A stretch of 64,000 nucleotides of DNA from assembly GCA_028715215.1 (NCBI GenBank), contig JAQUSF010000002.1, positions 15 to 64,014 on the forward strand. Direction: 5' to 3'. Both the position numbers and the translations under genes were made by a program. Below the pieces are notes generated by a model. The model was not told where the DNA came from, did not search any database, and saw nothing but the letters and a program-made list of their open reading frames with translations. The stretch comes from Candidatus Zixiibacteriota bacterium. Lineage in GTDB: Bacteria > Zixibacteria > MSB-5A5 > GN15 > FEB-12. Of the stretch, positions 18,642-56,291 are shown piece after piece (positions within the stretch are counted from its first letter, which is position 1; each line of letters opens with the position of its first letter).

Positions 18642-18866
18642 TCAGGGACAGGGGGGCAGGTCCTTATGACTGAGATACAGATGGTCAATCAGGTAGGTTA
18701 TATCGGAGATATCCGGTTCACCTCCGGAAGCATCAACATCGGCTTCCTCGGGACAGCAAAGTTCATCATTGCTGATATATAAGAAATCAATCAACCGGGT
18801 GATATCGGAAATATCCGGTTCCTCGTTTTCAGAGCAGTCGGAGTTACCGGTCAGTTCGATACAGCA
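18642..18866 (-). repeat. Coding segment of the shared 74-aa Cys-rich dockerin-like CTD (copy 1, M14)
   Basis: [74 protein letters not shown], then stop. Confidence 0.9.
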
Positions 18867-21167
18867 ACCCTGGCAGACATCTCCGACGCCGTCCATATCG
18901 GCATCCAGCTGATCCGGGTTGTAAACGTAAATGCAGTTATCGCAACTATCGCCGATGCCGTCCTGGTCGGTATCTTCCTGAAGAGGGTTGAATTTTACCG
19001 TACAATTGTCACAGGCGGTACCGACATTGTCATAATCGGGGTCGAGTTGGTCGGGGTTAGCCAGTCCCAGGCAGTTATCACAGGCGTCACCCACGCCATC
19101 TTCATCTTCATCACTCTGTTCGGGATTGTAGGCAAAAGGACAATTGTCGGGGGGGCAGTTGTTTTCAGGATGGTCCGGGTCACCATAGTAGTCGTTATCG
19201 CTGTCAATGCAGGTGTAAGGGTCAAAAGCCGCGGTCATTCTTATGGTGGAATAAGGACCCCATTGACCGTCGTCATCCTGAGCGCGTACTTTGTAATAAT
19301 AGGTGCCGGTTGTCCGGCCGGTGATATTATAAGTGGTATCGATTAAAGTGGAAGACAGGATATTTATATCATGAAATGAGTTGATAGGTGAAATATCGTC
19401 TATGCAGAAGCCGGCAAAACTGGTTGAAGAGTTTTTTGAAACTCTTATCTTGTAATAAATAGTCTGACCGGCAAAAGCGGACAAGTCAAATTTTGCTTCT
19501 ATCCACCCTGGTGAGGTTCCGGAAATATCGTTATATTCTCCAGCAGTAATGTTGCCGGGTATCGAAAAATAATGTAAATTATCGATAGATACACCAACGT
19601 TAACCCAGTCGACATTCTCCTGAAGGTTGTAATAGGTCCAGAATTTTAAGGTGTCACCGGCTGAGACCTGCCAGGATTCTTTAAATAATAAATCACTGAT
19701 TACCCCGGTGGCGTTTCCTGAATAAAAACAGGTAGGCGCCGAGTTGCAGGATATGTCGGTTAAAGTGAAATTTTTACTGGTAAAATTATTGAAATTGTTC
19801 GCCTGGTCAACAGTGTCAAAAGGATTCTGCATCTCTACCAGTTCATAACCGACGGTCGGGTTGAGCGTATCATTTACAGCTGACCAGACAACCGAGAAAT
19901 CCTGAGCATCGACGGTGGAAGGAATGAACAAAGCGGGAGCTTCGGGAGTAAGTACGGAAAATAAGTCATCAGCCCGGCGGGCCAGGAAAAGATTCGCTCC
20001 CAGGTTGACCGAAACCAGTTCGGGAATGCGGAAAAGGGGAGGCCAGAAATAATCGTTGATGGTGCCGACTTCGAATAAAAAGGCCATGTGCTTATCGGTG
20101 TCCATGAAGTTGGCATAGTTCCAGTCCGTGCTGCCGCCATTGACGGGGTACATCAGAATACCCGGTTGTCCGGAGGTATAACTGTTATAAGCGCTCAGGC
20201 TGTCTGACAGGACCCCGTACAATCTCTGGTCGGGACAGGGATCGGTAACATATTCCCAGGGATAAAGAATTTTATTGCCGTAAGAGTGATAATAAATGCT
20301 GGCTTTGAATTCGTGTGCCAGGGTGAAATCGCGAAGGTTCTGACTTTCCGGTTCGGAAAAAGGACCGGTTCCCCGGTAAGTTTCAGTAGACGGATTGGAT
20401 GAAGAGCCAAAATTATCATAACCCCACATGTATCCGAAATTACGATTAAGGTCAATGCCCCATTCACTGCCGACCACATGGCGGCGGTTCTTGCGCCACA
20501 TCCCGCCGCCGCCGGGAGCTATAACTTCATTGAAATAATAACCGTCGGGATTACAGCACAGGATAAACCATAACTCGCGGTTGTTTACCAGGTCGGCAAT
20601 CTCCGGCGAAGTATCGTAATTAGTCAAAAGGTGTTCTATGAAATGAATTAAGATCAGGGGGGTGATAACTTCGCGGGCGTGAATGGCGGCGGTGTACAGT
20701 ACTTCCGGTTCATCTTCATCAATGTTGGGATTATCGGATATTTTGAAAGCCCAGGTTTCCCGGCCTTCGATAGTCTGACCGATACTTTCTTTACTGGAGA
20801 CAAGGTCGGGTCGGGCGGCACAGAGGGAGTCGATATAGGCATTTATTTCCGCCAGGGTCATGTAACCGCCCATGTCCATTTTTTCATTAAGGCGTGATTT
20901 CAAAAAGGCGGTAAGGTCTTCATGAATGGTTTCTGTTTTGATCCCGAAGGATTTGATATAGTCCAGTTCATATTTATCGGTAACGATATCGATAAAACGT
21001 AAACCATGGTAGGTTTCGTCAAGCTGCAGATTTCTGATTTGAAGCCGTTCGCTTTCACTATCGAAAAACAACCGGACCTGCATCGGCGGTAAGTCTCGGG
21101 CGTACAAAGTGATGGTAAGACTTATTAGGAAAGTGAAGAGCAGACTGGTAAGAACGGTTTTTTTCAT
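18642..21167 (-). CDS. Secreted M14 zinc carboxypeptidase with a jelly-roll/FN3-like region, TSP type-3 repeats and the Cys-rich dockerin-like CTD
   Basis: It has a signal peptide. M14 motifs are [11 protein letters not shown] (HxxE), DLNRNF and YHSYG. DxDxDGxGDxCDNC repeats precede the shared 74-aa C-terminal module. A GGAGG RBS is present. Confidence 0.85.
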
Positions 21168-21292
21168 AGAACCTCCGGAATTACTGATGATTTAAATAAT
21201 TCTACTGACTTCAACTTCCAACCGCTCTTGATGAGTATTATTTACATTTTAATAGACGTAGAATTTAATAAAATGTTTATTTTTTTATTATA

Positions 21293-21335
21293 AAATAAAG
21301 AGTTATCCCTTAGCAGGGGGATAACTCCTTTTTTA
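21293..21335. terminator. Rho-independent terminator downstream of the BNR gene
   Basis: The 10-bp stem GAGTTATCCC (21300-21309) / GGGATAACTC (21318-21327) has T-rich flanks on both strands. Confidence 0.75.
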
Positions 21336-21347
21336 TAACAGGTTTTT

Positions 21348-21572
21348 TTAAAAGCAGTCGGGCAGAGCTCTATGGCTGATATAGAGATGGTCAATGAGGT
21401 AAGTAATATCCGAGATGTCCGGTTCTTCGCCTACTTTATCGACATTGGCTTCATCGGGACAACAAAGCTCGGCATGAGAAATATATAGAAAATCAATCAG
21501 CCGGGTAATGTCGGAAATATCCGGTTCTTCGGTTTCGGAACAATCGACATTTCCGGTCACACCGATGCAGCA
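21348..21572 (-). repeat. Shared CTD coding segment (copy 2, BNR protein)
   Basis: [74 protein letters not shown], then stop. Confidence 0.9.
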
Positions 21573-24320
21573 GCTTTCACAAACATTACCGATACCGTCC
21601 TCGTCATCATCGAGCTGATCCGGATTGTATACGAAAATACAATTATCGCAACTATCCCCGATACCGTCCTCGTCGACATCTTCCTGCTGAGGATTGTATT
21701 TATCCAGGCAATTATCACCGCCGTCGCAGATATCGTCGTTGTCGGCGTCATTGAGGGCGTCATAAGGGCATTTGTCGCAGGTGTCGCCGATATCGTCGTT
21801 ATCGGTATCCTCCTGAAGAGGATTGGCCGCCAACTGACAGTTATCATTGATATCGAGAATGCCGTCGTTATCATCGTCATCGTCGCAGGCATTGCCCAGG
21901 AAATCGTGGTCGTTATTTGCCTGGTCGGGATTAGCAACCGCCGGGCAGTTATCGCAATCGTCCGGATAGCCGTCCTCGTCGGAGTCACTGGTGCTTTCGC
22001 AGCCCAGAGCCAACCGATACATTGAGCGGCCATGCGTTCCGGCAACCAGGGTTTTGGTCGTGTAATGGTATTCCAGGTCATGCACGGCTACCAGGGGCAT
22101 ACCGGTGCCTAAAGGTTCCCATTCGGCGCCCAGGTTGACGGTTCTGAAAACCCCGACATCGGTAGCAATATAAAGGATGTTGTTGTTGTAAGCGTCGACG
22201 ATACAATCGTTGATGGGGACGTCGGGAAGATTGCCGCTGATATCAGTCCAGGTCTGGCCGTAGTCGCTGGTGCGGTGAATATGCGCCAGCTTGTCGCCAT
22301 CCTGCCGAAAACCGCTGTGCGTTACATAAGCTACGGCGGCATTGAAAGGATCTACCGTAACGCGGGTGACAAAGCGAACGGGCAGACCGTCGCTTATGTT
22401 GTTCCAGTTGGCACCGCCATCGGTGGTTACCGCGACAGTACCATTGGCTGTACCGGCATATACGACCATGGTATCCGAACGGGAGATGCCGATAGCCGTG
22501 ATGAAATAGGTGGTGATAGGATAGCTGTAAGCCTGCCAGGATTGCGCCCCGTTGACGGTTCGGTAAATGGCCTGGGCGCCGTAAAATAATTTTCGAGGAT
22601 TGTTGGGATCCATCTCCACGGGCGTCAACCAGCCCCGGTTTTCAGCGGTATTTATGCCGCTTATAGACAGATAAAGAGTTGTTCCGGCATTGTAGGAACG
22701 GCAGAAATTACCATACTGCCACGAAGCGTAGATGTTATCCGAATTGGTGTAATCGACCAGACAGCAGAAACCATCACCCCCGAGGATATGGTCCCAGCCG
22801 TAAAGGTCACCGGTCATCGTGCGTGAAGTTCCGTTATCCTGGGCACCGCCGTAAAGACGCTCGGGGCGGAGATAATCCTGGGCAATGGCGTAGTACTCGG
22901 TATTGGGCATATTCATGAAATTCGTCCAGGTGCTTCCCTGGTCGGTTGAATAACTTACGCCGCCATCATGGCCAATATAAAGGATACTGTCATTATCTTC
23001 GAGGATATACATGGCGTGCATATCAACATGGGGATTACCATCCGGGTCACCCGAAGGATTGCCTTTGGATATATTGACCCAGTAATTTCCGCCATTGATA
23101 CTTTTCGCCAGGTCGAAATCCAGAACATAAACAATTTCCGGATTGGTCGGGGAGACGCGGATGTTGCAGAAATACCAGATACGACCGCCGGCGGTATAAT
23201 TAATCAGAGTGGTTATATTGGTCGGGGTCCAGGTTACACCGAGGTCATCACTGCGAAAAACATTACTTATATAAGAATCATTGAATTCCGTAGGGATAGG
23301 CACACCTTCGGAAAAGAGCGCGTAAGCGGTGGTATGGGTTTTACCGAAAGTGACCGCCATCCGACCCAGGTTACCTGCAGCGGTCAGGCCGTTGGTGCCG
23401 GTTATATTGGTCCAGGTGTTGCCCCGGTCAGGGGAACGCCAGAGGGTGGTACCCGGTCCGAAACGAACCTGCCACATGGCGGCCAGCAGAACACCGGAAT
23501 CGGCATGGAGGGCAATATCGATGCAACCGGTATAATTGTCGACATATAGAATTTGTTCCCATGTGGCTCCGCCGTTCTGAGAGCGATACAAGCCGCGTTC
23601 GGGATGAGGTGCTCCCCAGTAAGTGCCTACGGCAGCGACATATACGGTATCGGGGTAATCGGGGTCGACAATTATTCGACCTATTCGGTAACTATTTTCC
23701 AGACCGATATGAGTCCAGGTGGCACCGGCGTCGATGGATTTATAAATACCGTTGCCTTCGTAGGAGGAGTTACGGGGATTCGGTTCTCCGGTACCCACGT
23801 AGATAATATTGGGGTTGGAGGGGTCAATGGCGACAGCGCCTATCGAGGGTGCACCTTCGTTGTCAAAAATGGCGGTGAAGGATTGACCAAGGTCGGTTGA
23901 TTTAAAAACTCCTCCCGATGATGAAGCTACATATATGGTATTGGGGTCGGAGGGGTGAATTGCCAGGTCACATATACGTCCTGGTACATTATAAGGACCC
24001 GCTTCTTCCCAGGTGCCATCCACCTGGCCGGATTTCAAAGCCGCATAAGCCCGGCGCATCTCTTTGGCTTCCTGGACGGCTTCTCGAAGTTGCCGGGGTG
24101 GAATAGTTTGATAGGGAAAAGCCCGTTGCTGGAAAAACCAGTCGCTGGGCCGAGCCTGCTTTTCAAGCCGGGCGAGTTTTTTGGATTGTTCAAAGGTAAT
24201 CGGAATTAATTTGATTGGTGTGTCTTCGGCAAAGTCCTCAGCCGGGCGGCTTGTGGTCAGGTAAGCCGCTAAAAGAACCAGCATGATTAACGGTACCAGA
24301 CAGGTTAGTTTTTTTATCAT
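21348..24320 (-). CDS. Secreted BNR/Asp-box repeat beta-propeller protein (sortilin/VPS10- or xyloglucanase-like) with TSP type-3 repeats and the dockerin-like CTD
   Basis: It has a signal or anchor segment. About 10 Asp-box motifs (SxDxGxTW) are present, e.g. KSTDLGQSF, KSIDAGATW, RSQNGGATW and STDQGSTW. TSP3 repeats and the shared CTD follow. Confidence 0.8.
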   Translation of the reverse strand: MIKKLTCLVPLIMLVLLAAYLTTSRPAEDFAEDTPIKLIPITFEQSKKLARLEKQARPSDWFFQQRAFPYQTIPPRQLREAVQEAKEMRRAYAALKSGQVDGTWEEAGPYNVPGRICDLAIHPSDPNTIYVASSSGGVFKSTDLGQSFTAIFDNEGAPSIGAVAIDPSNPNIIYVGTGEPNPRNSSYEGNGIYKSIDAGATWTHIGLENSYRIGRIIVDPDYPDTVYVAAVGTYWGAPHPERGLYRSQNGGATWEQILYVDNYTGCIDIALHADSGVLLAAMWQVRFGPGTTLWRSPDRGNTWTNITGTNGLTAAGNLGRMAVTFGKTHTTAYALFSEGVPIPTEFNDSYISNVFRSDDLGVTWTPTNITTLINYTAGGRIWYFCNIRVSPTNPEIVYVLDFDLAKSINGGNYWVNISKGNPSGDPDGNPHVDMHAMYILEDNDSILYIGHDGGVSYSTDQGSTWTNFMNMPNTEYYAIAQDYLRPERLYGGAQDNGTSRTMTGDLYGWDHILGGDGFCCLVDYTNSDNIYASWQYGNFCRSYNAGTTLYLSISGINTAENRGWLTPVEMDPNNPRKLFYGAQAIYRTVNGAQSWQAYSYPITTYFITAIGISRSDTMVVYAGTANGTVAVTTDGGANWNNISDGLPVRFVTRVTVDPFNAAVAYVTHSGFRQDGDKLAHIHRTSDYGQTWTDISGNLPDVPINDCIVDAYNNNILYIATDVGVFRTVNLGAEWEPLGTGMPLVAVHDLEYHYTTKTLVAGTHGRSMYRLALGCESTSDSDEDGYPDDCDNCPAVANPDQANNDHDFLGNACDDDDDNDGILDINDNCQLAANPLQEDTDNDDIGDTCDKCPYDALNDADNDDICDGGDNCLDKYNPQQEDVDEDGIGDSCDNCIFVYNPDQLDDDEDGIGNVCESCCIGVTGNVDCSETEEPDISDITRLIDFLYISHAELCCPDEANVDKVGEEPDISDITYLIDHLYISHRALPDCF

Positions 24321-24565
24321 ACACCCACCATTTGTAAATAATTTATTTTTATTTATAAACGAACTTTAATGAGCAACCTTTATATGAACCTATATAAGGT
24401 ACATCTATAAGTATGATAGCAGCTTCTTTTCTTACGAAAAAATGATTAAGAAGTTAAAAAAAATCCATACTATTAAGAACAATATATTAATAGACTCAAT
24501 AACGACAATTTGTGTTTAATGGTTTTTCCGGGGCGTAGATTTTGCGTTTTGAAGGTTTACTATAT

Positions 24566-24790
24566 TTACGGGCATTCCGGTAAGGGATTATGCGAGAGGT
24601 ACAAATGGTCGATTAAGAGAGTTATATCGGAAATATCGGGTCCGCCGCCGCTACCGTTGACATCGGCTTCCTCATAGCAGCACAAAGGCTTATGGGACAG
24701 GTAAAGGTGGTCAATCAGGGTGGTTATGTCGGAAATATCCGGAGCCTCGTTGGGAGAACAGTCAACATTGCCGGTGAATCCTATACAACA
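24566..24790 (-). repeat. Shared CTD coding segment (copy 3, FN3 protein)
   Basis: [74 protein letters not shown], then stop. Confidence 0.9.
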
Positions 24791-26002
24791 GTCCACTTTG
24801 GTAATATGAAAACACAGCGGTTCGGCATACCAGGCTGGTTTGACCGTGTCAACCGAACAGGAATTCGAACCAGTCCATCGCCATGTAAAAGCCGCCATGG
24901 GCATTGCGGTCGTATCAAATATCACTATTGTATCAATACATATTTGTTTGCCTATATCATCAGGAGCGGGTTTAATGGTAACTAAGAAAGCACGGTCATT
25001 AAAACCTTCATATAAACCGGGACCGCTCGTGGTTTGGGCGGCCAGGCCGACAGTATCGATTCCATCACCATCGCAACTGAAACAACCGAGGTTTACAGAA
25101 CTGAACTCGGTTTTGCCGATATTGACCGTATCTGCAAGAGTATAACTCCAGTGAGCGTCGTCGGGTGAATATACTTTTAAATTTAAGCTTATATTAAAGA
25201 AGCAATCGGTTTCACCGGATATATTTATTGCGCGGAAATAAAAGGTGACTTTTTTACCGGCGGCGATAGTGTCTTCAAAACCCAGCTCATTTTTCGGACC
25301 GGCGGCATTAGCAATACTGTCAAGGGTGATTTCCTGAATCCTTACATAGGCGGTGACAACCCCGGAATGAGGTGAAAAATTACCGGCCTGGTCCTGGGCG
25401 ATAACCAGGTAATTGAACCCCTCAGTCGGGTAAACATCATAATCGATATAAAAACTGTCAGCTATACCGGGGTCCGCCAGTGAACCGGCGGTATTGTCCA
25501 GACGAAAGAAGGAACCATTGGAACCGGCTGAACGGCGATAGAGATGGTAAGTAAGGCCGGGGAGAGCTGTCCAGTGGATTAAAATACTAGAAGTGTCAAG
25601 GGAACGAGCTCTTAGGTCGTCCGGTTTCGAAGGCCAGTTGACCGGGTTTAAGGTGACATTTTCTTGCTGGTAGGAATTGTGAGGAATCATTTTTTCCAGA
25701 TGAAAGCCTTCGCCGTTGTGATGATTAAAAAAGTAATAATCATAGGGATTATCCGGCGCCTCGGTAAGATAGTTTTGAAAATCATCATACCAGATAGTGT
25801 CATCATAACCGGCACCGTCACAGGTTTCTATTCTTAGCTCTTCATCGGTATCATCGAGGAAACCGAAAAAAGTAATATGGCTGTCAGCCGGGAAGGTTAA
25901 ATCGGCATTGGTAACCAGGCCATATATGGAGCCCTGCCCCAAAGCCGTTGAACCGAAAAAAAATAATAATCCGGTAAGTAATATCACAAGGGTTTTAAAC
26001 AT
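24566..26002 (-). CDS. Secreted protein with an FN3-like domain and the dockerin-like CTD; no catalytic domain recognised
   Basis: It has a signal peptide (LLFFFGSTALGQG), an FN3-like stretch (SILIHWTALPGLTYHLYRR) and the shared 74-aa CTD. Confidence 0.7.
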   Translation of the reverse strand: MFKTLVILLTGLLFFFGSTALGQGSIYGLVTNADLTFPADSHITFFGFLDDTDEELRIETCDGAGYDDTIWYDDFQNYLTEAPDNPYDYYFFNHHNGEGFHLEKMIPHNSYQQENVTLNPVNWPSKPDDLRARSLDTSSILIHWTALPGLTYHLYRRSAGSNGSFFRLDNTAGSLADPGIADSFYIDYDVYPTEGFNYLVIAQDQAGNFSPHSGVVTAYVRIQEITLDSIANAAGPKNELGFEDTIAAGKKVTFYFRAINISGETDCFFNISLNLKVYSPDDAHWSYTLADTVNIGKTEFSSVNLGCFSCDGDGIDTVGLAAQTTSGPGLYEGFNDRAFLVTIKPAPDDIGKQICIDTIVIFDTTAMPMAAFTWRWTGSNSCSVDTVKPAWYAEPLCFHITKVDCCIGFTGNVDCSPNEAPDISDITTLIDHLYLSHKPLCCYEEADVNGSGGGPDISDITLLIDHLYLSHNPLPECP

Positions 26003-28843: not shown

Positions 28844-28863
28844 GAAATTTTAGCTGACGGATA

Positions 28864-28906
28864 ATAAAAAAAGCCGCCTGGTTGATACTTCGGCGGCTTT
28901 TTTTAT
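28864..28906. terminator. Bidirectional rho-independent terminator
   Basis: The stem AAGCCGCC (28871-28878) / GGCGGCTT (28892-28899) is flanked by an A-run and a T-run, between convergent genes. Confidence 0.8.
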
Positions 28907-28918: not shown

Positions 28919-29143
28919 TTATGGGCAGTCCGGCAGCGCTTTGTGGGTCAGATAAAGGTGGTCTATCAGGTAAGTGATGTCGGAAATATCTGGTTCTCCT
29001 CCTGACCGGTCGACATCGGCTTCTGGCAGACAGCACAATTCCGTCTGACTGATATAAAGATAATCAATAAGGCGGGTAATGTCGGCGATATCCGGTTGGT
29101 CGGATTCGGAGCAATCGGCGTTCCCGGTCAGGCCCTGGCAACA
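28919..29143 (-). repeat. Shared CTD coding segment (copy 4, M14)
   Basis: [74 protein letters not shown], then stop. Confidence 0.9.
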
Positions 29144-33790: not shown

Positions 33791-33822
33791 GAATATAAGT
33801 ATTTTTAAATCAGGGTTGGAAA

Positions 33823-34458: not shown

Positions 34459-34461
34459 ACA

Positions 34462-37995: not shown

Positions 37996-37996
37996 G

Positions 37997-44786: not shown

Positions 44787-44820
44787 AAAAAAAAGGCCGC
44801 CCTGTTAAAGAGCGGCCTTT
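44787..44820. terminator. Rho-independent terminator between convergent genes
   Basis: The stem AGGCCGC (44794-44800) / GCGGCCT (44812-44818) has an A8 run to its left. Confidence 0.75.
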
Positions 44821-44838: not shown

Positions 44839-45063
44839 TCATGGACAATTGGGCAGGGGGGTATGTGACAGATAAAGGAAATCTATCAGCCGCGTAATGT
44901 CGGATATATCCGGATCACCTCCGGAAACATCCACGTCGGCTTCATCGGGACAACAAAGAGGGTTGTGACTTAAATACAGATAATCGATCAAACGGGTAAT
45001 ATCGGAGATGTCAGGGTCTTCAACCTCGGAACAATCCACGTTGCCGGTTTGACCGATACAGCA
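44839..45063 (-). repeat. Shared CTD coding segment (copy 5, C10)
   Basis: [74 protein letters not shown], then stop. Confidence 0.9.
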
Positions 45064-46965
45064 ACCTTCGTAGTAATAAAGAATACTGCCAGATGATAAA
45101 GCCGGGGTGTAAGTTGCCAGCTCCCCATAGAATTTGGGTTCTAAAGTAATAGAAGTCGTGTAGCCGTCGAAGATGAGCAGGTTGGAATCATTGGGCGGGC
45201 CGGACGTGATGCTGAATTTCAAGATGATAAGCGGGCCGGTTCCGGGATCAAGCTCGGGGTCGCTGCCGACTTCGAAATTTAAAGTCATTCGTTTTTCGGA
45301 AGCGCTATAATTGAGATAACCCACATCCATATAATCCGCCCGACAGCCGGTAACGCTGTAACCCTTGTATGAGAGATTTAAATTACCGCCGTACTCAACC
45401 GGCAACTGAATGCGATACAGCGGAACATAATTGGTGATATGAATAGGGATTTCAAGGGTGGTGGCCAGAGGTCCTTGTACATGGGAACCTCTGATAGTAT
45501 CAGCCAGGGCAATAACATGATTTAATTTTTCGTAATAGAAAGAAGCCATGCCCGAATCTACTCTCAGTCCCACATCATAAATTCCGGGTGTCTGGTAGGT
45601 ATGCACAGGTTCCTGTATCATTGCCGAGTCACCGTCGCCAAAATACCATTTCCAGCCGGTCACGGCCTGAAGTTCCGAGGCGCCGAAGAAACTGACATCC
45701 AGCGGAACCCAGCCGATATTATTGGATGAGGTGAACATGGAACGTTTTTCAGGCATGATAAAACGCTGCATCGATTCATTGAGATAGTTGCAGCCTTCCA
45801 CGGCACAGTGAAGATTATCCACGGTATACCAGCCGTTGTAACTTCCACCCCAGCCATAATTCATATGATATTGATTCAGAGTACCGTTAACGCGCCAGCC
45901 GTCGCATACGATGGCATGGGCGTCAATCAAGTACATAATCGGTCGCCCCTGGTCGATTTCATCGGCTATCATGCCGAACCAGGAAGCGGGATCGTAAGAA
46001 CTGCGGTAAAAATTCATGACGATATCACGGTACTTGAAATAGTCCGAATAAACTGAATTGAACGGCCAGGTACCTGAACCGCAAGCACCGAAATCCATGT
46101 TAAAAGCTATCGCCACTTCGTAATTAAATTCCGCCAGGGCGTCGTTCTGAGCCTGAGTACAGCCGCCATCACAGTTATCGGGAATATTTGCCCAGTCATA
46201 GGGGTCATAAAAGGTTGCGCCCACAGTCAGACCGGGGGTGCTGCCTTCACAGGAATTATCGCCGTCCCACCAGTAAGAACGACTTCCCGTACCTTCCGGG
46301 GGCCACTGATGATACTTGAAAATCTGCGCGGCGGCGGTAGCAACACAGCCCACCACAGTCCTATCCCCATCACCATAGGGACATAAGTTGTTATACGGGT
46401 CGAACTGGTGCCAGCGCGAGGTCAAGAGCGGTCCGACCTGGGTGCTTTCCAGGCTGGTTTTAAAATCCAACCGCTTGGTGGTGTAGGAATCCCATTGGCG
46501 GCGGTGTTCCCGGCTAAATATTACTTCCCCCGAAGCTGGCTGGGCGGCTTCAAGAGAGCCGTAATTTTCAACGTAAACCCGAAGCAGTTTCTGAAGGATT
46601 TCACGCATCATCAGGGGGAAGCCGAACCGCTGGGTAATATCAAAATGGCCTTCGTCGGTATAAAATTTTACCGGTGCCATATCTTTCAATATCGGGATAA
46701 TTACGAAACCTTCGGGTGAAATGGAGTAGACCCTTCCCAGAAGGGTGTCATTTTCGATGATATCCTGAACGTCGGTTATTTGAGGATTGGTTACTCCGGC
46801 CCAACTGCCGTTTTGTGATACGATTTCAGCCAGCCAGTTCTCACAGACGAGTTCCATTTCTTCGGGAACGGCTGTTTCAGCGTTGGCTTGACCAAGCCAT
46901 AAAAAAGTCAATAAAATCGCCAGAAAAGTTGTTATTGACAGGTGGGAAATTGTTTTGGTCTTCAT
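44839..46965 (-). CDS. Secreted C10 (streptopain-like) cysteine peptidase: I69-like prodomain, C10 core, PKD domain, cohesin-like domain, dockerin-like CTD
   Basis: C10 motifs are LLTSRWHQFDPYNNLCP...VVGCVATAAAQI (catalytic Cys), HAIVCDGW (His) and MNYGWGG. The PKD-like stretch is WKWYFGDGDS...HTYQTPGIYDV. The shared CTD follows. Confidence 0.85.
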   Translation of the reverse strand: MKTKTISHLSITTFLAILLTFLWLGQANAETAVPEEMELVCENWLAEIVSQNGSWAGVTNPQITDVQDIIENDTLLGRVYSISPEGFVIIPILKDMAPVKFYTDEGHFDITQRFGFPLMMREILQKLLRVYVENYGSLEAAQPASGEVIFSREHRRQWDSYTTKRLDFKTSLESTQVGPLLTSRWHQFDPYNNLCPYGDGDRTVVGCVATAAAQIFKYHQWPPEGTGSRSYWWDGDNSCEGSTPGLTVGATFYDPYDWANIPDNCDGGCTQAQNDALAEFNYEVAIAFNMDFGACGSGTWPFNSVYSDYFKYRDIVMNFYRSSYDPASWFGMIADEIDQGRPIMYLIDAHAIVCDGWRVNGTLNQYHMNYGWGGSYNGWYTVDNLHCAVEGCNYLNESMQRFIMPEKRSMFTSSNNIGWVPLDVSFFGASELQAVTGWKWYFGDGDSAMIQEPVHTYQTPGIYDVGLRVDSGMASFYYEKLNHVIALADTIRGSHVQGPLATTLEIPIHITNYVPLYRIQLPVEYGGNLNLSYKGYSVTGCRADYMDVGYLNYSASEKRMTLNFEVGSDPELDPGTGPLIILKFSITSGPPNDSNLLIFDGYTTSITLEPKFYGELATYTPALSSGSILYYYEGCCIGQTGNVDCSEVEDPDISDITRLIDYLYLSHNPLCCPDEADVDVSGGDPDISDITRLIDFLYLSHTPLPNCP

Positions 46966-47169: not shown

Positions 47170-47301
47170 TTATTGCGGTTCCTGCGTCAGCTCGAAGACA
47201 AAACAAGGTTTGACCGGCGGCGGCCCGGACAAATATAAAAAGTTAACCAGATGAGTAATGTCGGAAATATCGACAACCGAATCACAATTGCAATCGGCCA
47301 T
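47170..47301 (-). CDS. Orphan 43-codon ORF encoding a single dockerin-like half-module; gene relic or mini-protein
   Basis: Hand translation gives MADCNCDSVVDISDITHLVNFLYLSGPPPVKPCFVFELTQEPQ. The core VDISDITHLVNFLYLS matches the [16 protein letters not shown] repeat of the eight CTDs. There is no signal peptide. An in-frame stop lies 15 codons upstream of the ATG, and AAGGA lies just upstream. Confidence 0.35.
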   Translation of the reverse strand: MADCNCDSVVDISDITHLVNFLYLSGPPPVKPCFVFELTQEPQ

Positions 47302-48680: not shown

Positions 48681-48714
48681 AAAAAACCGTCCCGGTGAGG
48701 GGACGGTTTTTTTT
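48681..48714. terminator. Bidirectional rho-independent terminator
   Basis: The stem ACCGTCCC (48686-48693) / GGGACGGT (48700-48707) is flanked by an A6 run and a T8 run. Confidence 0.8.
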
Positions 48715-48727
48715 AGTTTCTTATTTT

Positions 48728-48952
48728 TTACTGGCAGGGAGCCAGGGGGTCATTTGAAATATAAAGGTAATCGATAATGGCCGTAATGTCGGCGATATCC
48801 GGTTCACCGCCACTGCCATCACAGTCGGCTTCGTCCGGACAGCACAAGGGGGCATGACTGGTGTACAGGAAATCAATCAGGCGGGTGATGTCGGAGATAT
48901 CAGGTTCATCATTCGGGGAGCAATCGACATTACCGGTTAGACCCACACAACA
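48728..48952 (-). repeat. Shared CTD coding segment (copy 6, C10)
   Basis: [74 protein letters not shown], then stop. Confidence 0.9.
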
Positions 48953-50869
48953 ACCGGTATAGGTGACAACCCCCGGATAAAGACGAGGTTCGTAGTCGGC
49001 CAGGAAACTGTAGAACCAGGGGACGAAAGTATTGGCGCCATCGGTATAGCCGTCGATTTTTATAGAAGTGGTGTCAACTCCGGGTATGGAAGCGGAAAGG
49101 ATTTTGAATTTCAGGATAACGATCGGGCCGCGTCCGGGTTCAAGATCCGAAGTGGTGCCGATATTCATGTCGAGAGTAAAACACCTGGTGCTCCCGTTAT
49201 AGTGTAAATAATTAATTTCTTCAAAATTTTCCGTCCGGCAACCCGCCACGGAATAGCCCTGATATTTAAGATTTAGCGGGCCGTCGTATTTAACCGGTAA
49301 AATGATACGATTCAAGGGAGTGATGTTTGCGGCGATAATGGGAATATCCATTATGGAATCAAGCGGTCCTTCGACATCGGTACCTACTAATGAATCAGCC
49401 AGGGAAATAATGAAATCGGATTTGATATAAGAACGGATATCACCCTGGGCATTCACTTCCAGTTTGACATCATAGATACCCGGTTCTTCATAAAAGTGGG
49501 CTGGGTTTTGAACATTTCCCGAGTCACCGTCGCCGAACTCCCAGGTCCAGGTATCCACCGCCAACTCCGATTCGCCGATAAAGTTCACTTCAAAGGGCGC
49601 CCAGCCGATGGTGGTGTCAGCGGTAAAATTAACGCCCTTATCGGGAACGATATACCTGATAAGAAATTCCACCATGGGATTACATCCTTCCCAGTTACAG
49701 TGCAGGTTATCAACCGTGAACCAGGCATTGTAACTGCCGCCCCAGCCGTAATTCATATGCACTTGGTTGAGCTCTTCGACCTGTTGCCAGCCGTCGCAGA
49801 CGATGGAATGATTACTGATACGATATTGCATCGGGCGTTCGGTGTCGATTTCCGAGGCGATAGTGTAAAACCACGAGGCGGCGGAATGCATGTTGCGGTC
49901 TTCCCGGTCGATAATATCGAGATAGCGGAAATAGGTGGGGAAAACATACAGCGCATCGGCCGTATATGCTCCGGATCCGCAATAACCGTATTCCATATTA
50001 AAAGCCACGCCGACTTCGTAACATAGCTCCGCCAGGGCATTACGCTGGGCTTCGTTACAGTTGGTGCAGTAATCAGGCATGTTAGCCCAGTCATAAGAAT
50101 CGGAATAATCGGCTTCCAGGGTAGCGCCGCTGGAACTGCCTTCACAGGACATGTCGCCGCTCCAGTAATAACTGTGCTGACCCGTGCCTTCAGGCGGCCA
50201 ATCATGGTAAGCCAGGATCTGGGCGGTTGCTGTCGCCACGCAACCGACCAGTGTCCGACCGCCGTCGCCCCAGGGACAGAAGTTGTTATAGGGCGCATTC
50301 TGGTGCCAGCGGGTGGTTAGAAGAGGTCCCGCGGTGGTGATGGAGCTGGACTTTTTCCCCAGATTACTTTTAAATTCAGTGTGGGTCACGGTCAGGTCGG
50401 ACCATTTTTTTCGCTCAGCGGTGAAACTTGTTTCATTATTCCGGGCTGTCGAATATTCAAGAGTGCCGTAGCGGTCAACAAAATTGCGCACCCGGTTTTG
50501 CAAAACCTCCCTGACCAGCGCCGGGAAACCGTCGGGTTCATCCACGTCGTAAAAACCTTCATCGGAATAGACTTCTACCGGAGGAAGCTCCTTCAAAACC
50601 GGAACAATGATATAACCTTCCGGTGCGACGGCATAGACCCGGCCTAACAGCGTATCGTTAACAATAATATCATCGACCCTGTCAATTTTGGGATTGGTTA
50701 CCGATGACCAGTTCGTCTTTGCGAAGGTAATTTGAGTGAGCCAGTTGTGGCTGACTAAATCCATTTCATCAACAGTAGCTTTTTCCGCCAGAGGAGCGGT
50801 TACAAATAGAAATAAAAGACTTAATAATAGTGAGGGGATAATTACCGGCAGGATAATGTTTTTACTCAT
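48728..50869 (-). CDS. Secreted C10 cysteine peptidase paralog: prodomain, C10 core, PKD domain, cohesin-like domain, dockerin-like CTD
   Basis: It carries LLTTRWHQNAPYNNFCP...LVGCVATATAQI, HSIVCDGW, MNYGWGG and WTWEFGDGDS...GIYDV, followed by the shared CTD. An AGGGAG RBS is present. Confidence 0.85.
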   Translation of the reverse strand: MSKNIILPVIIPSLLLSLLFLFVTAPLAEKATVDEMDLVSHNWLTQITFAKTNWSSVTNPKIDRVDDIIVNDTLLGRVYAVAPEGYIIVPVLKELPPVEVYSDEGFYDVDEPDGFPALVREVLQNRVRNFVDRYGTLEYSTARNNETSFTAERKKWSDLTVTHTEFKSNLGKKSSSITTAGPLLTTRWHQNAPYNNFCPWGDGGRTLVGCVATATAQILAYHDWPPEGTGQHSYYWSGDMSCEGSSSGATLEADYSDSYDWANMPDYCTNCNEAQRNALAELCYEVGVAFNMEYGYCGSGAYTADALYVFPTYFRYLDIIDREDRNMHSAASWFYTIASEIDTERPMQYRISNHSIVCDGWQQVEELNQVHMNYGWGGSYNAWFTVDNLHCNWEGCNPMVEFLIRYIVPDKGVNFTADTTIGWAPFEVNFIGESELAVDTWTWEFGDGDSGNVQNPAHFYEEPGIYDVKLEVNAQGDIRSYIKSDFIISLADSLVGTDVEGPLDSIMDIPIIAANITPLNRIILPVKYDGPLNLKYQGYSVAGCRTENFEEINYLHYNGSTRCFTLDMNIGTTSDLEPGRGPIVILKFKILSASIPGVDTTSIKIDGYTDGANTFVPWFYSFLADYEPRLYPGVVTYTGCCVGLTGNVDCSPNDEPDISDITRLIDFLYTSHAPLCCPDEADCDGSGGEPDIADITAIIDYLYISNDPLAPCQ

Positions 50870-51027
50870 GATAAACGGACTCCCTTTGCAATATATTCCG
50901 TGCTTCTGTTATTATTGACATTACATTAAGATGCAAGTCATGTAAATACCGCAATTATTATATAATAACGGTCACTTTCGATTTATGGTTGGTGAAATAA
51001 ATCAACTTATCAGTTTTTCAGTTTCCT

Positions 51028-51255
51028 TTATAACGGGCACTCGACAACCGGATCATGTGACAGGTAAAGAAAATTTATTAAAGCCGTAATATCCGAGATA
51101 TCAGGGGTACCGCCGCTCCCGTCGCAATCAGCTTCGTCGGGGCAACAGAGCGGTGCATGACTGGTGTACAGAAAATCGATCAGGCGGGTGATGTCGGCAA
51201 TATCAGGTTCCTCTGTCTCAGAACAATCAACATTTCCCGTCATACCTTGACAACA
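51028..51255 (-). repeat. Shared CTD coding segment (copy 7, C10)
   Basis: [75 protein letters not shown], then stop. Confidence 0.9.
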
Positions 51256-53280
51256 GCCGGTGCTGGTTATCAAGCCGGAAATAAGGACTGGTTCATACTG
51301 ATTTTCATAACCATAAAATTGAGTCAAAAAAGTGGTGGTCGTAGTGTAGCCGTCAAAAATAATATCAGTTGCACTGTTTTTAGCGGCGGCGGAATCGATT
51401 TCAAAACTTAGTTTAATAACAGGGCCGCTGCCGGGGGATAAAACCGTACTGGAGCCGGCTTCCATATTGATTGTCAGGCGCTTGTTGCCGGTGTCGTAAC
51501 TTAAATATGAAATATCGTTAAAACCTTCCGTACGGCAACCTTCGCTCGAAAAGCCCTTATATTTAAGAGAAACCGGACCGGAATATTCAACCGGCATCTG
51601 AAGCCGCTGGAGGGGAATATTGTTGATGGCGTTAACTGTAAACTCGACAATGCTCCCGGAAGTACTTTCTACATGATTACCCCTTAAAGTATCAGCCAGA
51701 ACGATAATAAAATCCGATTGGGCAAAGAAACGATTTTCACCACCGGTTACAATATCAAGCCTGACGTCAAAAACACCGGGCGTAAGGTAGATATGGATCG
51801 GCGATTGTTCCGAAGAATATTCGCCGTCACCGAAATCCCAGTTCCAGGATTCCACCTCGAGTTCCGAGAGACCTTCGAAATTGACTTCAAAAGGCACCCA
51901 ACCGAAGGTCGTGTCGGCCGTAAACTGAACGCCCTGGTCAGGGATAATATCGCGGAATAAAAATTCCGACAGATAACTGCAACCGTCCCAGTTGCAATAA
52001 GTGTTATCCAGGGTGAACCAGGCATTGTAACTGCCGCCCCAGCCGTAATTCATATGATATTGATTGATATCGCCGATAGTCTGCCAGCCGTCGCAGACAA
52101 TGGCATGACGGGAGATAAAATACTCCATGACATATCCGGAATTAATCTGACTTTTAATCAGGTTGAACCAGGACATGGCGGTATGGTTGTCGCGGTCTTC
52201 CCGGTCGATGGTGTTCATATAGCGAAAATGCTCATGAAAAGCCTGCATGACAAAATTAATCTGGGATAAGTAAATAGCGGAGCCGCAACGGCCATAATCC
52301 ATATGAAAAGCAACCCCGACTTCATAATTTAACTCCGCCAGGGCATTCTGTTGTTCGATAGTGCAGCCGCTGCAGTAGTCGATCATGTTGGGCCAGTCAT
52401 AAGGGTCGCTGAAATCAGCCGTGAGGCGCTGGCCGTCGGATGAACCGCCGCAGGAAAAATCACCCGTCCAGGTATAACTTTCGCTGCCTTCGCCTGAAGG
52501 TGGCCACTGGTAGTAGGCAAAAATCTGAGCTGCCGCCGTGGCGACACAGCCAACCACCGTTCGCCCGCCATCGCCCATGGGACAGTAGTTATTGTAAGGT
52601 GCGTTTTGGTGCCAGCGAGTTGTCAGTAACGGTCCAACGGTTTCATCGGTTGCCGTTACAGACTTATTCAGTTGTCGCGAAAAGACCGCTTCCGGCACTG
52701 CATAATTATCCCATTGTTCACGGTGCCTCTTATCGAGGAAAAGGTCTCCCTCTTCAGGTTGCAGAGCTTCCAGGCTGCCATAGCGATTTACAAAAACTCT
52801 TGTCCGGTCGAGGAGCACCTCTTTTATCATTTGCGGATAGCCGGGGTCATCCAGGTTGAAATAACCTTCATCAGTATAGACTTTTACGGGTGGCAGGTCT
52901 TTCAGAACCGGGACAATTATAAAACCATCGGGATCGATATTGTAGCAGAGTGCCAGGAGCGTATCATTCTCTTTTATTTCCACAATATCAGCGACTTTAG
53001 GATTAAATTGCCCGGCCCATTCTCCTTTATTATGGACAATTTTTGTCAGCCAGTTATTGCATACAAGATTCATTTCATCCACTGCAGCGGTTTCGGCATG
53101 TATCCTGGGGATAAATAAAAATATTACCAGGCAGAGGTAAATTGTGATTATGGGAAGCCTGACAGTATAAAAAAGCTGTCTGGTCTTATTTGGAGAAGCA
53201 AGGCTCTTAATGGTCCGGTGATACATGGGGAACCCTTTCATTGGTGTCTTATTTTTTATATTATTGACGTAATTTTTCAC
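51028..53280 (-). CDS. Secreted C10 cysteine peptidase paralog: prodomain, C10 core, PKD domain, cohesin-like domain, dockerin-like CTD
   Basis: It carries LLTTRWHQNAPYNNYCP...VVGCVATAAAQI, HAIVCDGW and MNYGWGG, with a PKD-like stretch and the shared CTD. The start is uncertain, with candidate Met codons at 53280, 53241 and 53226. Confidence 0.8.
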   Translation of the reverse strand: MKNYVNNIKNKTPMKGFPMYHRTIKSLASPNKTRQLFYTVRLPIITIYLCLVIFLFIPRIHAETAAVDEMNLVCNNWLTKIVHNKGEWAGQFNPKVADIVEIKENDTLLALCYNIDPDGFIIVPVLKDLPPVKVYTDEGYFNLDDPGYPQMIKEVLLDRTRVFVNRYGSLEALQPEEGDLFLDKRHREQWDNYAVPEAVFSRQLNKSVTATDETVGPLLTTRWHQNAPYNNYCPMGDGGRTVVGCVATAAAQIFAYYQWPPSGEGSESYTWTGDFSCGGSSDGQRLTADFSDPYDWPNMIDYCSGCTIEQQNALAELNYEVGVAFHMDYGRCGSAIYLSQINFVMQAFHEHFRYMNTIDREDRDNHTAMSWFNLIKSQINSGYVMEYFISRHAIVCDGWQTIGDINQYHMNYGWGGSYNAWFTLDNTYCNWDGCSYLSEFLFRDIIPDQGVQFTADTTFGWVPFEVNFEGLSELEVESWNWDFGDGEYSSEQSPIHIYLTPGVFDVRLDIVTGGENRFFAQSDFIIVLADTLRGNHVESTSGSIVEFTVNAINNIPLQRLQMPVEYSGPVSLKYKGFSSEGCRTEGFNDISYLSYDTGNKRLTINMEAGSSTVLSPGSGPVIKLSFEIDSAAAKNSATDIIFDGYTTTTTFLTQFYGYENQYEPVLISGLITSTGCCQGMTGNVDCSETEEPDIADITRLIDFLYTSHAPLCCPDEADCDGSGGTPDISDITALINFLYLSHDPVVECPL

Positions 53281-53503
53281 TCAATATATGGCATCTTTCA
53301 AACTATGGGTAATTTGCAGTAAACCCAACCTGTTGCCAGGGCAGTACATAGATGATTCGGAAACTGCTTTTTGGCGCAGAAATTGTTGTTACCTGATAAA
53401 ATATCGTCCATTCTTCACTACATAAATATAATCTTTTTTTTATGATTGCCAAGCGTTTTTTTATATTATCTGATTGTCGTAACTTGTGTTAGGTATCCTT
53501 ATC

Positions 53504-53540
53504 AAAAAAAACACCCCTTTTATCCAAAGGGGTGCTTTAT
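53504..53540 (-). terminator. Rho-independent terminator of the C25 peptidase gene
   Basis: The 9-bp stem CACCCCTTT (53512-53520) / AAAGGGGTG (53526-53534) is followed on the minus strand by a T8 run. Confidence 0.8.
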
Positions 53541-53567
53541 CAACGCAGATAAATAATTGTCGTTTAC

Positions 53568-53792
53568 TTATGGACATGAAGGCAAGGGATTTTGATCAAT
53601 ATACAGATGGTCAATCAACCTGGTTATATCAGAAATATCCGGAGTACCCCCGTTGCCGTCACAATCTGCTTCCAGGGGACAACAAAGGGGTATCTGTGAA
53701 ATGTAGAGAAAGTCAATGAGCCTTGTAATATCGACTATGTCAGGTTCTTCGCTTTCGGAACAATCGACATTGCCCCGATAATCAATACAACA
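53568..53792 (-). repeat. Shared CTD coding segment (copy 8, C25)
   Basis: [74 protein letters not shown], then stop. Confidence 0.9.
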
Positions 53793-56291
53793 GCAGGCAT
53801 CCCCAATCAGGTCATTATTGGCATCTTCCTGGCCGGGATTGTAATCCTCCGGACAATTGTCGCATATGTCACCATAACCGTCTCCATCCAAATCTTCCTG
53901 CAGCGGATTTGCCAGTTCCGGGCAGTTGTCGCAGGCATCACCTACGCCATCACTGTCCTGGTCTTCCTGGCCGGAATTTGGCACGGCTGGACAATTATCG
54001 CAGGCGTCGCCCTGAAGGTCACCATCCTGATTAAGCTGGTCGGTATTGCTGACCGCCGGACAGTTATCGCAAATGTCTCCGACACCGTCATCATCACTAT
54101 CCGCCTGGTCGGGGTTGGTTATAGTCGGGCAGTTGTCGCAGGCATCGCCGAACTCGTCTTCGTCACTATTGGTTTGGGTTGGATTGAATATCAAAGGACA
54201 GTTGTCTTCAGTATCAATAATCCCGTCATTGTCACTGTCCGGCGCTTCGGTAACCGTAACCGTCGCCTGGTGCGGAACGAAATTCTGACGGGTAACGGTA
54301 ACAAACATATCACCGCCCGTTGCCAGGGACAGACTAAAAGTGGCGTTACCATCGGTTCCGGTGTTTTGAGTAGCATAAATTTCATCGCCTTTCCATAGAC
54401 AAACGAAAGCGTTGGAAAGATCGTTGCCACTATTATTTTCGACATGGACGGTGAAAGTCGGCTGCGATACCGGTATTTCAGCGGGGTGGCTGACGCTAAA
54501 TAGGGCCGGAATATCTGTCCAGATAGGCATTTCGGGTTCACCCAGAAGATTGAGGGTCCATTGCACGTAGTGCCAGCTGGAAGTGGAAGGGTTGTTGTTT
54601 TTAGTCCAGGCCAGAGCCTGTCCGAGGCGATACTGGTTCTGTTGAAAAAGCCCGCGCCACCAGTAGATGTCCAGCTGGCTGGACAGGGAGTTGGGGTCGC
54701 CGATATAAAACCAGCCGCTGCGGGTATTGCCGGTAAAAGCTACCGCGCCCTGAAGATGATTATAGATAACAAAACGCTCGGCGATACAGTCGTTGTAATC
54801 CATTTCATTGGGGTGACAGCCGATTGAAAAAATAACACTGAGACGATTATTGTTGACGAGATTATCGACGTCGGAATTGGTAAATATGGCTCCGTGATTT
54901 AAATAACCGATACCCATCAGAGTGGTGTTGCTGTGGTCGCAGTGGTTAACAAGATTTTGCCCGGCATTGAGAGAATTGATTAAGTCGGTTTTATGGGATG
55001 TGGCGTCGGAATCGTATATTTTCGTAACGTTGAAACGGGCGGGGATGTAATTATGATCAATATTCTCCTTCATAACTTCACCAGCGGTCAGGGTGTAATA
55101 AGGAGGTTCCGAAGCCAGTGTCAGGTCCATCCCGACCAGATTGGCATCAAGAGCGAAATTATCCAGAGGCGGGTTGGTTTCATAAAGGAGGAGTTTACTG
55201 ATAAAGATGCTGATCTGGGTGGCTCCTTCAGCCGTAACCCGACCGACGAAAACCTCATAATCCCAGTCGTCATCGTAATCGCCGTAATAAGCATCGCTGG
55301 GGATGGATTCGCTATCATAGGTACGGTACACAAAAGGTACGGTGGAGTGTTCGCCGCCTATAAGAAAATATATCGTTCCCCAGGTATTGTGGGCATCGAT
55401 GACAAAATTCCTGATTTTTTCCTGGTTGGTGCTGCCGCTATAGGCGGCGTAGATATCGGTGGTGGTAACCACCGTGTCCCGGACTCCCTTGCGGGTATGC
55501 CAGGTAACAAGAGGTTGATAGTTGGTGACATAGGCTGATGAAGTAATAATAACATGGGGATATTGACCCGGCGGAAGCAGGGCGGCGGCTTTCTCAATCG
55601 AAGTATTCATTTCCAAAGTGACTTTTTCAGGGTTAACCACCATCGCCCGGACGATATTCTCATATTGCACTTTTATTTCCGGCTGGATATTAGGCGACAG
55701 GTAATCACCGCAGATATAACCTGCCTCGCCCTCGATTATAAAACTTATCGTTTCATGAAATATTAGTCTGTTTTCGGCGGGGATATATTGTAAAGGATAA
55801 AGCATCACTTTGGCCATACTCTGACCGGCCAGGTCGCTCTGTCCAACCAGTTCGACAATCTTTTCGGGATAGGGAGCCAGGGATGAATAGACCGACGCGT
55901 CGGCTTCGGTAAAGGCGAGTTCATCCGGTGAATATCCAATTTTAACCGGTTTTTGCGATGGCAGGATATGGTATCGGCCATCAAGATTTATCGTTGAAAC
56001 CTGGCTTATTTTTACGCCGGTAGCTTTCATACCCTGCGGGAGAGCGATTTTTATCTCCCGGGCTGGAAGCCAGGGTTTACCGGTAACAGCCAGGTATTGG
56101 CTGCCCTTTATTCGTACTACATCGTAGTCCAGAACCCGGTCAAAAGTAAAATCGCCGGTTGAAAAAGAAACATTACAGGTTTCTTCGAATTTAGCACCGA
56201 TATTCTGAGAACCGGCTGAACTGCTTAAAAAAAACATTAACAAGAAGATGATAAATAGCGATGCTGTTGAGTTTTTTCTGGAGATAGTCAT
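53568..56291 (-). CDS. Secreted C25 (gingipain-like) cysteine peptidase with seven TSP type-3 repeats and the dockerin-like CTD
   Basis: It has a signal peptide. The C25-like core includes HVIITSS...[32 protein letters not shown] (His) and FSIGCHPNE (Cys). The TSP3 array lies at 53793..54239 and the shared CTD follows. Confidence 0.75.

Follow-up and report, generated by a model that had tools for sequence, protein, structure and literature searches.

Cysteine-stapled dockerins and predicted cryptic cohesins on secreted peptidases of an uncultured Zixibacteria genome

Eight secreted proteins with a common C-terminal module

The subject of this analysis is a stretch of 64,000 nucleotides from the genome of a Candidatus Zixiibacteriota bacterium (assembly GCA_028715215.1, contig JAQUSF010000002.1, positions 15 to 64,014), hereafter called the window, and within it eight minus-strand genes whose proteins all end in the same module of 74 amino acids (aa), which we identify below as a divergent dockerin (Table 1). 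An earlier reading of the letters alone, here the sequence-only reading, had pointed out these genes and placed the module 0-1 residue from the end of each protein, and the open reading frames (ORFs) and their translations bear this out for all eight at the same coordinates. Its catalytic assignments stand for seven of them, in which Pfam finds two M14 carboxypeptidases, a BNR/sortilin-type propeller, three C10 peptidases and a C25 peptidase; its label "FN3 protein" for the remaining one is left without confirmation, as that 478-aa protein (24566-26002) has zero Pfam matches to any domain. Inspection of the N-termini reveals a basic n-region followed by a strong hydrophobic core in eight of eight proteins, in agreement with the signal peptides (SP) claimed before. 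For the C10 gene beginning at 53280, the GTG is probably too far upstream because the hydrophobic region lies at about residue 44, and an internal Met is probably the true start. Terminators in the form of a long hairpin rich in G+C, followed by a T-run, lie 3' of six of the eight genes, namely the five that had been listed earlier and one more at 48681-48714.

The public annotation describes the eight products as peptidases, a TSP3-repeat protein and a hypothetical protein, and mentions neither dockerin nor cohesin. In the four non-C10 genes at 18642-21167, 21348-24320, 28919-31393 and 53568-56291, the Ca-binding TSP3 repeats run directly into the module. These repeats are also the source of the NCBIfam matches "Omp28-related selenoprotein" and "MtsC" on the full proteins, which we therefore do not assign to the module.

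Table 1. Module-bearing genes of the window and two further features, with positions counted from the first letter of the window. SP, signal peptide; HMM, hidden Markov model.
Position	Strand	Description (domain order)	Cys-dockerin	Predicted cohesin	Terminator or hairpin	Evidence
18642-21167	-	SP, M14 carboxypeptidase, MAM-like, TSP3 repeats, Cys-dockerin	18645-18866		18586-18624	Pfam, module alignment, signal peptide
21348-24320	-	SP, BNR/sortilin-type propeller, TSP3 repeats, Cys-dockerin	21351-21572		21292-21334	Pfam, module
24566-26002	-	SP, domains without Pfam match (FN3-like by eye only), Cys-dockerin	24569-24790			Module
28919-31393	-	SP, M14 carboxypeptidase, MAM-like, TSP3, Cys-dockerin	28922-29143		28866-28904	Pfam, module
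44839-46965	-	SP, C10 cysteine peptidase, PKD, predicted cohesin, Cys-dockerin	44842-45063	45070-45519	44787-44820	Pfam, AlphaFold and Foldseek, HMM
48728-50869	-	SP, C10, PKD, predicted cohesin, Cys-dockerin	48731-48952	48959-49414	48681-48714 (bidirectional hairpin)	Pfam, HMM
51028-53280	-	SP, C10, PKD, predicted cohesin, Cys-dockerin (+1 residue after)	51034-51255	51265-51711		Pfam, HMM
53568-56291	-	SP, C25 propeptide, C25 gingipain-like peptidase, Ig-like, TSP3 repeats, Cys-dockerin	53571-53792		53504-53538	Pfam, module
47212-47298	-	Lone dockerin repeat with canonical 12-residue loop (ADCNCDSVVDISDITHLVNFLY; DCNCDSVVDISD + ITHLVNFLY)				HMM (E 9e-9)
15919-16611	+	Secreted 230-aa protein with Por_Secre_tail (PF18962, 27.3 bits, cutoff 27; ...NYPNPFNG...GVYLYRL...KMLLLK)				Pfam

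The module is a divergent dockerin

The eight modules align with a mean column identity of 81% and 35 invariant columns, among them six cysteines at module positions 1, 2, 11, 37, 38 and 73. An internal duplication is visible in the sequence, with two loop-helix repeats that both contain PDISDITxLIDxLY. At the DNA level the copies are just 66% identical, synonymous sites are saturated (proportion of synonymous differences, pS, 0.80) against a nonsynonymous proportion (pN) of 0.21, and the median dN/dS over the unsaturated pairs is about 0.09. The copies are thus ancient paralogues under purifying selection, and their likeness is due neither to chance nor to recent gene conversion.

Five independent lines of evidence agree that the module is a divergent, Cys-stapled, type I-like dockerin of the PF00404 superfamily. 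The first is a broadened profile of 79 sequences run against the PDB sequences, whose top five matches are all type I dockerins of Clostridium thermocellum, in register over both repeats and with 4FL4_A as the best; the first PDB profile search, made with the eight copies only, had returned nothing but a designer PPR (pentatricopeptide repeat) protein, which we discarded as an artefact of the repeat motif (PD..T.LID.L). The second is a direct comparison by hhalign of the eight window modules with canonical dockerins, which gives a probability of 98.7% and an E-value of 3e-16. Thirdly, the AlphaFold model of the module is confident, with a predicted local distance difference test score (pLDDT) of 93.3 and a predicted template modelling score (pTM) of 0.82, and has the topology loop-helix, short helix, loop-helix, with helices at residues 25-37, 45-48 and 59-71. 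When this model is compared with the PDB by Foldseek, dockerins fill all of the top 24 places, and 4FL4_A superposes with probability 1.00, a template modelling (TM) score of 0.81 and a root mean square deviation of 1.7 Å over 69 columns.

The fourth line comes from the relatives of the module. A word-indexed search retrieved sequences that are mostly named Zixibacteria and that grade continuously from the window form, beginning with CC, to canonical dockerins. Relatives P0052 (CCVGLTGNVDNDPDGVVDIGD...LIDYLY) and P0085 are intermediates that PF00404 recognises, and it also recognises P0088 (CGDADGNGLVNILDITRLINYLY...AADVNGSGQLNILDITYLINFLY), a canonical example. The fifth line is a single protein, P0228 (Zixibacteria; NCBI name "dockerin type I repeat-containing protein"), which has a canonical dockerin where the window proteins have the Cys-module, and which shares with the C10 proteases of the window the pre-dockerin domain treated in the next section. 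The variant is widespread, since 4,340 clusters at 50% identity match the module HMM at E <= 1e-3 in an exhaustive search.

The description of the module as a six-Cys tandem duplication of a loop and a helix, given in the sequence-only reading, agrees with both the alignment and the modelled topology. Whether a curated model covers it had been left undecided there; the isolated modules go unmatched in Pfam and NCBIfam alike. That reading had also proposed an undescribed dockerin-like anchoring system, to be given up if a confident, full-length match to a characterised domain turned up. Such a match exists, and of the proposal "dockerin-like" survives but "undescribed" fails. The module is no new kind of domain or system but a new, widespread, Cys-braced and long-looped variant of the dockerin. 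It resembles type I dockerins (PF00404; C. thermocellum Cel9/CelD in 4FL4 and Xyn10B in 1OHZ/2CCL) in its length of about 70 aa, its tandem Ca-loop and helix, its three-helix topology, the acidic or amide ligands at loop positions 1, 3 and 5 and at the equivalents of 9 and 12, the near symmetry of its repeats and its place at the C-terminus of secreted enzymes. It differs from them in loops that are 14 and 13 residues long and not 12, in having six conserved cysteines where the classical domain has none, in a helix motif ITRLIDxLY instead of LxLLKRYLL, in escaping the Pfam model, and in being carried by peptidases instead of glycoside hydrolases, in a Gram-negative bacterium of the FCB (Fibrobacterota, Chlorobiota and Bacteroidota) group.

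The loops had been noticed before to be longer than a canonical EF-hand, and this is correct: insertions of two residues in loop 1 and of one in loop 2 account for the difference from the canonical 12. Loop lengths of 12, 13 and 14 all occur among relatives in the same family, and the residues of Ca-ligand type are kept (N/D at 1, D/N at 3, S/D at 5 and Asp at the equivalents of 9 and 12). The helix positions that contact the cohesin in known complexes are nearly identical between the two repeats. In classical dockerins such symmetry goes together with a dual binding mode, and by analogy one might be supposed here as well.

The cysteines behave as three units. Among 207 relatives, C11 and C37 are both present in 186, both missing in 18 and discordant in 3; the corresponding numbers are 195, 6 and 6 for C38 and C73, and 169, 29 and 9 for C1 and C2. 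This co-occurrence argues for conserved disulfides in an exported domain, and it fits the three disulfides that had been suggested from the six cysteines of the window copies. The co-varying pairs C11-C37, C38-C73 and C1-C2 are most likely disulfides, to judge from these sequences, and most likely they tie both loop 1 and the C-terminal tail to the linker between the repeats, although it is uncertain whether C1 and C2 form a vicinal disulfide or none.

A six-frame HMM scan of the window finds exactly eight full copies, the number given in the sequence-only reading, and in addition one half-module at 47212-47298 that had been overlooked. It lies within a 43-aa ORF (47170-47301) in an AT-rich (34% GC), stop-riddled spacer between two C10 genes, and is probably the relic of a lost dockerin gene.

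Predicted cohesins in the C10 proteases

In each of the three C10 proteases, a region of about 150 aa separates the PKD domain from the dockerin and has no match in Pfam (E <= 10) or among the PDB sequences. With both searches blank, it was structure prediction alone that revealed what this region resembles. AlphaFold gives a confident beta-sandwich of about 12 short strands (pLDDT about 90-95 over residues 10-150), and in the Foldseek comparison with the PDB, cohesins make up 50 of 50 among the matches listed, with E-values from 1.3e-9 to 1e-5 and TM scores to the target of up to 0.78. These matches include the classical cohesins 1OHZ, 1AOH and 1ANU. They also include the non-cellulosomal cohesin 2XDH of the archaeon Archaeoglobus fulgidus, the third-best structural match (E 8.6e-9, TM 0.76). 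A profile of 25 sequences of the family, run against the PDB sequences, has cohesins in its first three places, although weakly, with 2XDH again (E 0.078) followed by 2VN5 (0.66) and 1G1K (1.0). The identity to 2XDH is only about 17%, and this cohesin is archaeal and has no protease context; a dockerin is present in its parent protein too. In the search for homologous proteins, the cohesin profiles retrieved P0228 alone.

We conclude from the modelled fold that the three pre-dockerin domains are a cryptic cohesin subfamily of the PF00963 superfamily, and that a candidate partner of the dockerin is thus encoded in the window itself. These three cohesin-fold domains, directly upstream of the C10 dockerins, had been absent from the sequence-only reading. 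By HMM the window has three such cohesins and eight dockerins in total, and the C10 architecture reads SP-C10-PKD-Coh-Doc, where Coh and Doc stand for cohesin and dockerin. The two domains are almost contiguous, the first C10 cohesin stopping about 2 residues short of its dockerin. In an AlphaFold model of the pair, made with a 10-sequence alignment, both domains are confident, whereas the linker has a pLDDT below 50 and the pTM is 0.63.

The 478-aa protein at 24566-26002 also has a domain of its own directly before the dockerin, about 190 aa long (residues ~215-400) and without Pfam match, with a motif W-x-W...P-A-W-(G/Y)-x-P...F that precedes the dockerins of P0096 and P0182 as well. It was tried as a further cohesin and is unrelated (hhalign against the cohesin family, 0.1%).

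Relatives in other genomes

We surveyed 185,579 species-representative genomes for the close subfamily of the module and found it concentrated in four metagenome-assembled genomes (MAGs), of which two are of Zixibacteria and the others bear the labels Ignavibacteriales and Bacteroidales. The Ignavibacteriales-labelled MAG has cluster members (at least 90% identity) of several window proteins on one contig, and appears to be closely related to the window's genome. A sample of 72 related loci, 850 kb in all, contains 132 dockerin ORFs and 21 ORFs with a C10-type cohesin, and every one of the latter is a Coh-Doc tandem. Counted per MAG, three related MAGs have at least 57, 42 and 29 dockerins and at least 8, 6 and 7 cohesins, respectively.

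It could be argued that a C10 cohesin only binds the dockerin of its own chain, or forms a rigid unit with it, and in this way stabilises or auto-regulates the protease, while the other five dockerins of the window bind something else. The linker of about 2-5 residues in all of the 21 or more Coh-Doc examples agrees with this, and the C10-type cohesin has never been seen without a neighbouring dockerin, a strict 1:1 fusion as expected of an obligate intramolecular pair. We find it improbable all the same, for the AlphaFold model of the pair lacks confident packing between the domains, and conservation of the dockerin is as high in the M14, BNR and C25 proteins as in the C10 proteins (81% column identity), which points to a common external partner. 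The amylase Amy4 moreover shows that an enzyme with both a cohesin and a dockerin can bind in trans (PMC4611034).

The cargo of the dockerins is biased towards peptidases. Among 76 complete dockerin ORFs, Pfam finds C10 in 8, S8 in 7, C25 in 5, M14 in 4, C1 in 3 and M1 in 3, together with PKD, TSP3, FG-GAP, MAM and lectin-type modules, and no glycoside hydrolase is found among their 25 most frequent Pfam families. The dockerins outnumber the detected cohesins by about 4-7 to 1, and a cohesin is missing from five of the eight window proteins. To our knowledge there are many non-cellulosomal dockerin-like modules without a known cohesin partner, and the module could likewise be an orphan, an adhesion or stability domain that is stabilised by Ca2+ and disulfides and has a ligand other than a cohesin, such as an envelope glycan, a substrate or a surface protein, with the cohesin-like domain being an unrelated Ig-like spacer. 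We regard this as unlikely. An excess of dockerins is normal in cellulosomes, the structural match to the cohesin fold is specific and deep, and it would be an unlikely coincidence for a cohesin and a dockerin to be fused in one gene family at the same loci.

The position of the module bears on yet another explanation. It stands at the C-terminus in 186 of 227 retrieved relatives, as it does in all eight window proteins, each with its signal peptide, and this is also how a secretion or sorting signal would look that is read by a dedicated translocon or sortase (of the T9SS C-terminal domain, PEP-CTERM or MYXO-CTERM type; T9SS, type IX secretion system) and then removed or attached covalently. 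The sequence-only reading had considered a tag of this kind, but the data contradict it and leave it very little probability. The C-terminal domain (CTD) of the T9SS (Por_Secre_tail, PF18962/TIGR04183) is indeed C-terminal and common to many secreted hydrolases of the FCB group, C10 and C25 peptidases included. It is however a beta-sandwich, strictly C-terminal and cleaved by PorU, whereas the module is all-alpha, lacks any match to a sorting domain in Pfam or NCBIfam, and varies in position, being found right after the signal peptide in P0109, P0141 and P0182, internally in P0224, and in multiple copies in some relatives. The two can also coexist, since P0124 carries the Cys-module together with a genuine C-terminal Por_Secre_tail. 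In the window, too, a protein apart from the eight has a T9SS tail (15919-16611), which means that a bona fide sorting tail of another kind serves other proteins of this genome.

An iterated cohesin HMM, run over the related loci and the window, finds single cohesins within enzymes, tentative Doc-Coh-Doc proteins and one T9SS-tailed protein with a single cohesin. The arrangement of a dockerin, a cohesin-like domain and a second dockerin is recurrent (P0093, P0130, P0124, P0198, P0204, L064:4043-7231 and L021:600-5222), often in S8 peptidases, and here the first dockerin is canonical, positive for PF00404 in several, and the last one of the Cys-rich type. The middle domain, as in P0093 and P0130, is only tentatively called a cohesin: the iterated HMM accepts it, and hhalign gives 9% for one example. 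The T9SS-tailed protein (L024:1-4149, JAFGNW010000174.1, Zixibacteria MAG Zod_Metabat.57) is at least 1,383 aa long and has at least five BACON-like Ig repeats, a CarboxypepD_reg domain, a cohesin-like domain (hhalign 89.6%, E 1.9e-6) and a Por_Secre_tail (E 3.5e-11), with no dockerin. It is a plausible candidate for a scaffoldin that anchors to the outer membrane.

No anchor equivalent to L024 was found in the window. The T9SS-tailed window protein, encoded 2 kb from the first dockerin gene, has an N-terminal domain of about 115 aa without family match, and as a cohesin this domain is rejected (hhalign 0.2%). A 728-aa ORF without Pfam match (38941-41127) was considered as a scaffoldin and turned out to be a polytopic membrane protein with a weak match to spermine synthase.

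A possible assembly of peptidases

We think that this Zixibacteria genome encodes a protease-rich cohesin-dockerin assembly resembling the Amy4 amylosome, and would give this roughly two chances in three; Ca2+ binding, pairing and location are what we infer in it. After export by Sec and oxidative folding, the dockerin of an enzyme would bind Ca2+ and dock non-covalently onto a cohesin. The C10 proteases would be enzyme and single-cohesin adaptor at once, so that their cohesin could capture the dockerin of an M14 or C25 peptidase, of the BNR protein or of another C10 protease, while their own dockerin would plug into a further cohesin, and chains or small peptidase hetero-complexes would form. 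A dockerin-less, T9SS-tailed cohesin protein, as in the related MAG, could then tether the complexes to the outer membrane.

Several observations weigh against such an assembly. PF00404 leaves the isolated modules unmatched even at E <= 10 and the Pfam cohesin model is equally silent on the C10 domains, and the best E-values against PDB sequences are marginal, 0.003 for the dockerin (4FL4_A) and 0.078 for the cohesin. The excess of dockerins leaves many of them unpaired unless there are other types of cohesin, and in the 850 kb of related loci and the window the iterated cohesin HMM finds no scaffoldin with multiple cohesins. The sole anchored cohesin protein, L024, belongs to another MAG, and its cohesin is recognised by HMM and hhalign, not by structure. 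The short linker between cohesin and dockerin, with its low-confidence model, makes an intramolecular unit possible, and with loops of 13-14 residues the calcium geometry may differ from that of known dockerins. The gathering of a protease-rich set of enzymes, which the sequence-only reading had proposed, is still the most plausible role of the module.

The closest parallel to the C10 proteins has been described by experiment. In Ruminococcus bromii, Amy4 consists of a GH13 enzyme, a cohesin and a dockerin, and the cohesin accepts the dockerin of Amy4 itself as well as those of further amylases, by which multimers and mini-complexes are formed (Ze et al. 2015, PMC4611034). Like Amy4, the C10-PKD-Coh-Doc proteins are secreted hydrolases with one cohesin and one C-terminal dockerin, encoded beside enzymes that have a dockerin only. 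They differ in being proteases instead of amylases and in having the cohesin abut the dockerin, and the binding shown for Amy4 is a matter of prediction here. The host of Amy4 is Gram-positive and has a sortase-anchored Sca2, unlike the host of the window.

Another close system is that of 'Ca. Stygibacter' of the Cloacimonadota, for which a cellulosome-like complex has been inferred from signal-peptide-bearing S8 and C25 gingipain-like peptidases with C-terminal dockerins, and from a cohesin protein that has many tandem cohesins and carbohydrate-binding modules and attaches to the surface through a T9SS-type CTD (Williams et al. 2021, PMC8542988). Both systems belong to the FCB superphylum and have peptidase cargo, and the CTD-anchored cohesin protein is comparable to L024. 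However, the domains of 'Ca. Stygibacter' are recognisable by InterPro, whereas the dockerin and the cohesin of the Zixibacteria system are cryptic to Pfam, and its cohesins are single and embedded in enzymes. In the searchable literature we found no report of Zixibacteria with a dockerin, a cohesin or a cellulosome.

A bolder proposal would be that Zixibacteria and some neighbouring FCB lineages have a cellulosome analogue dedicated to proteolysis, a "proteolysome", built from long-loop stapled dockerins (thousands of metagenomic clusters) and C10-embedded cohesins, in which C10 proteases polymerise head to tail, recruit carboxypeptidases and gingipain-like or subtilisin-like peptidases, and are held at the surface by a T9SS tether. 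In it the Cys staples may be an adaptation by which the docking domains are shielded from the proteases that they bring together. We offer this proposal tentatively, and would sooner doubt it in this full form than defend it.

Eight genes whose annotation mentions neither domain can in this way be joined into one coherent and testable assembly system for which a candidate partner is named. There is also a blind spot in the domain models, as 4,340 clusters match the variant while neither Pfam nor NCBIfam sees the window copies or their cohesins, and surveys of cohesins and dockerins outside the Firmicutes will consequently undercount. The mostly proteolytic cargo suggests that in uncultured Zixibacteria proteins are degraded by enzymes organised into complexes, and this is relevant to what these bacteria do in anoxic sediments and digesters. 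Cohesin-dockerin pairs that are small, braced by disulfides and able to work beside proteases could furthermore serve as orthogonal parts in the design of enzyme scaffolds.

Other genes in the window

Divergent from the C25 dockerin gene lies a gene on the plus strand (56626-58386) for a protein with DUF1565/beta-helix and Laminin_G_3 domains, in which neither a dockerin nor a T9SS tail was detected. Also beside the dockerin-protease cluster are two tandem, overlapping Peptidase_C1_2 genes on the minus strand (59801-62724), similar to aminopeptidase C or bleomycin hydrolase, that have no dockerins. A pair of genes with DUF362 and DUF6599 is present twice on the plus strand, at 101-1638 and at 35366-38944, where the second pair flanks a 555-aa protein with multiple [4Fe-4S] ferredoxin domains, and a third DUF362 gene (42236-43159) adjoins a radical SAM gene and a Memo/AMMECR1 fusion. 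The plus-strand cluster at 31629-35358 encodes an MttB-family methyltransferase, a Met_synt_B12-like activation protein, a corrinoid (B12-binding) protein and a homocysteine S-methyltransferase, and looks like a corrinoid methyltransfer system of the methylated-amine or glycine-betaine type.

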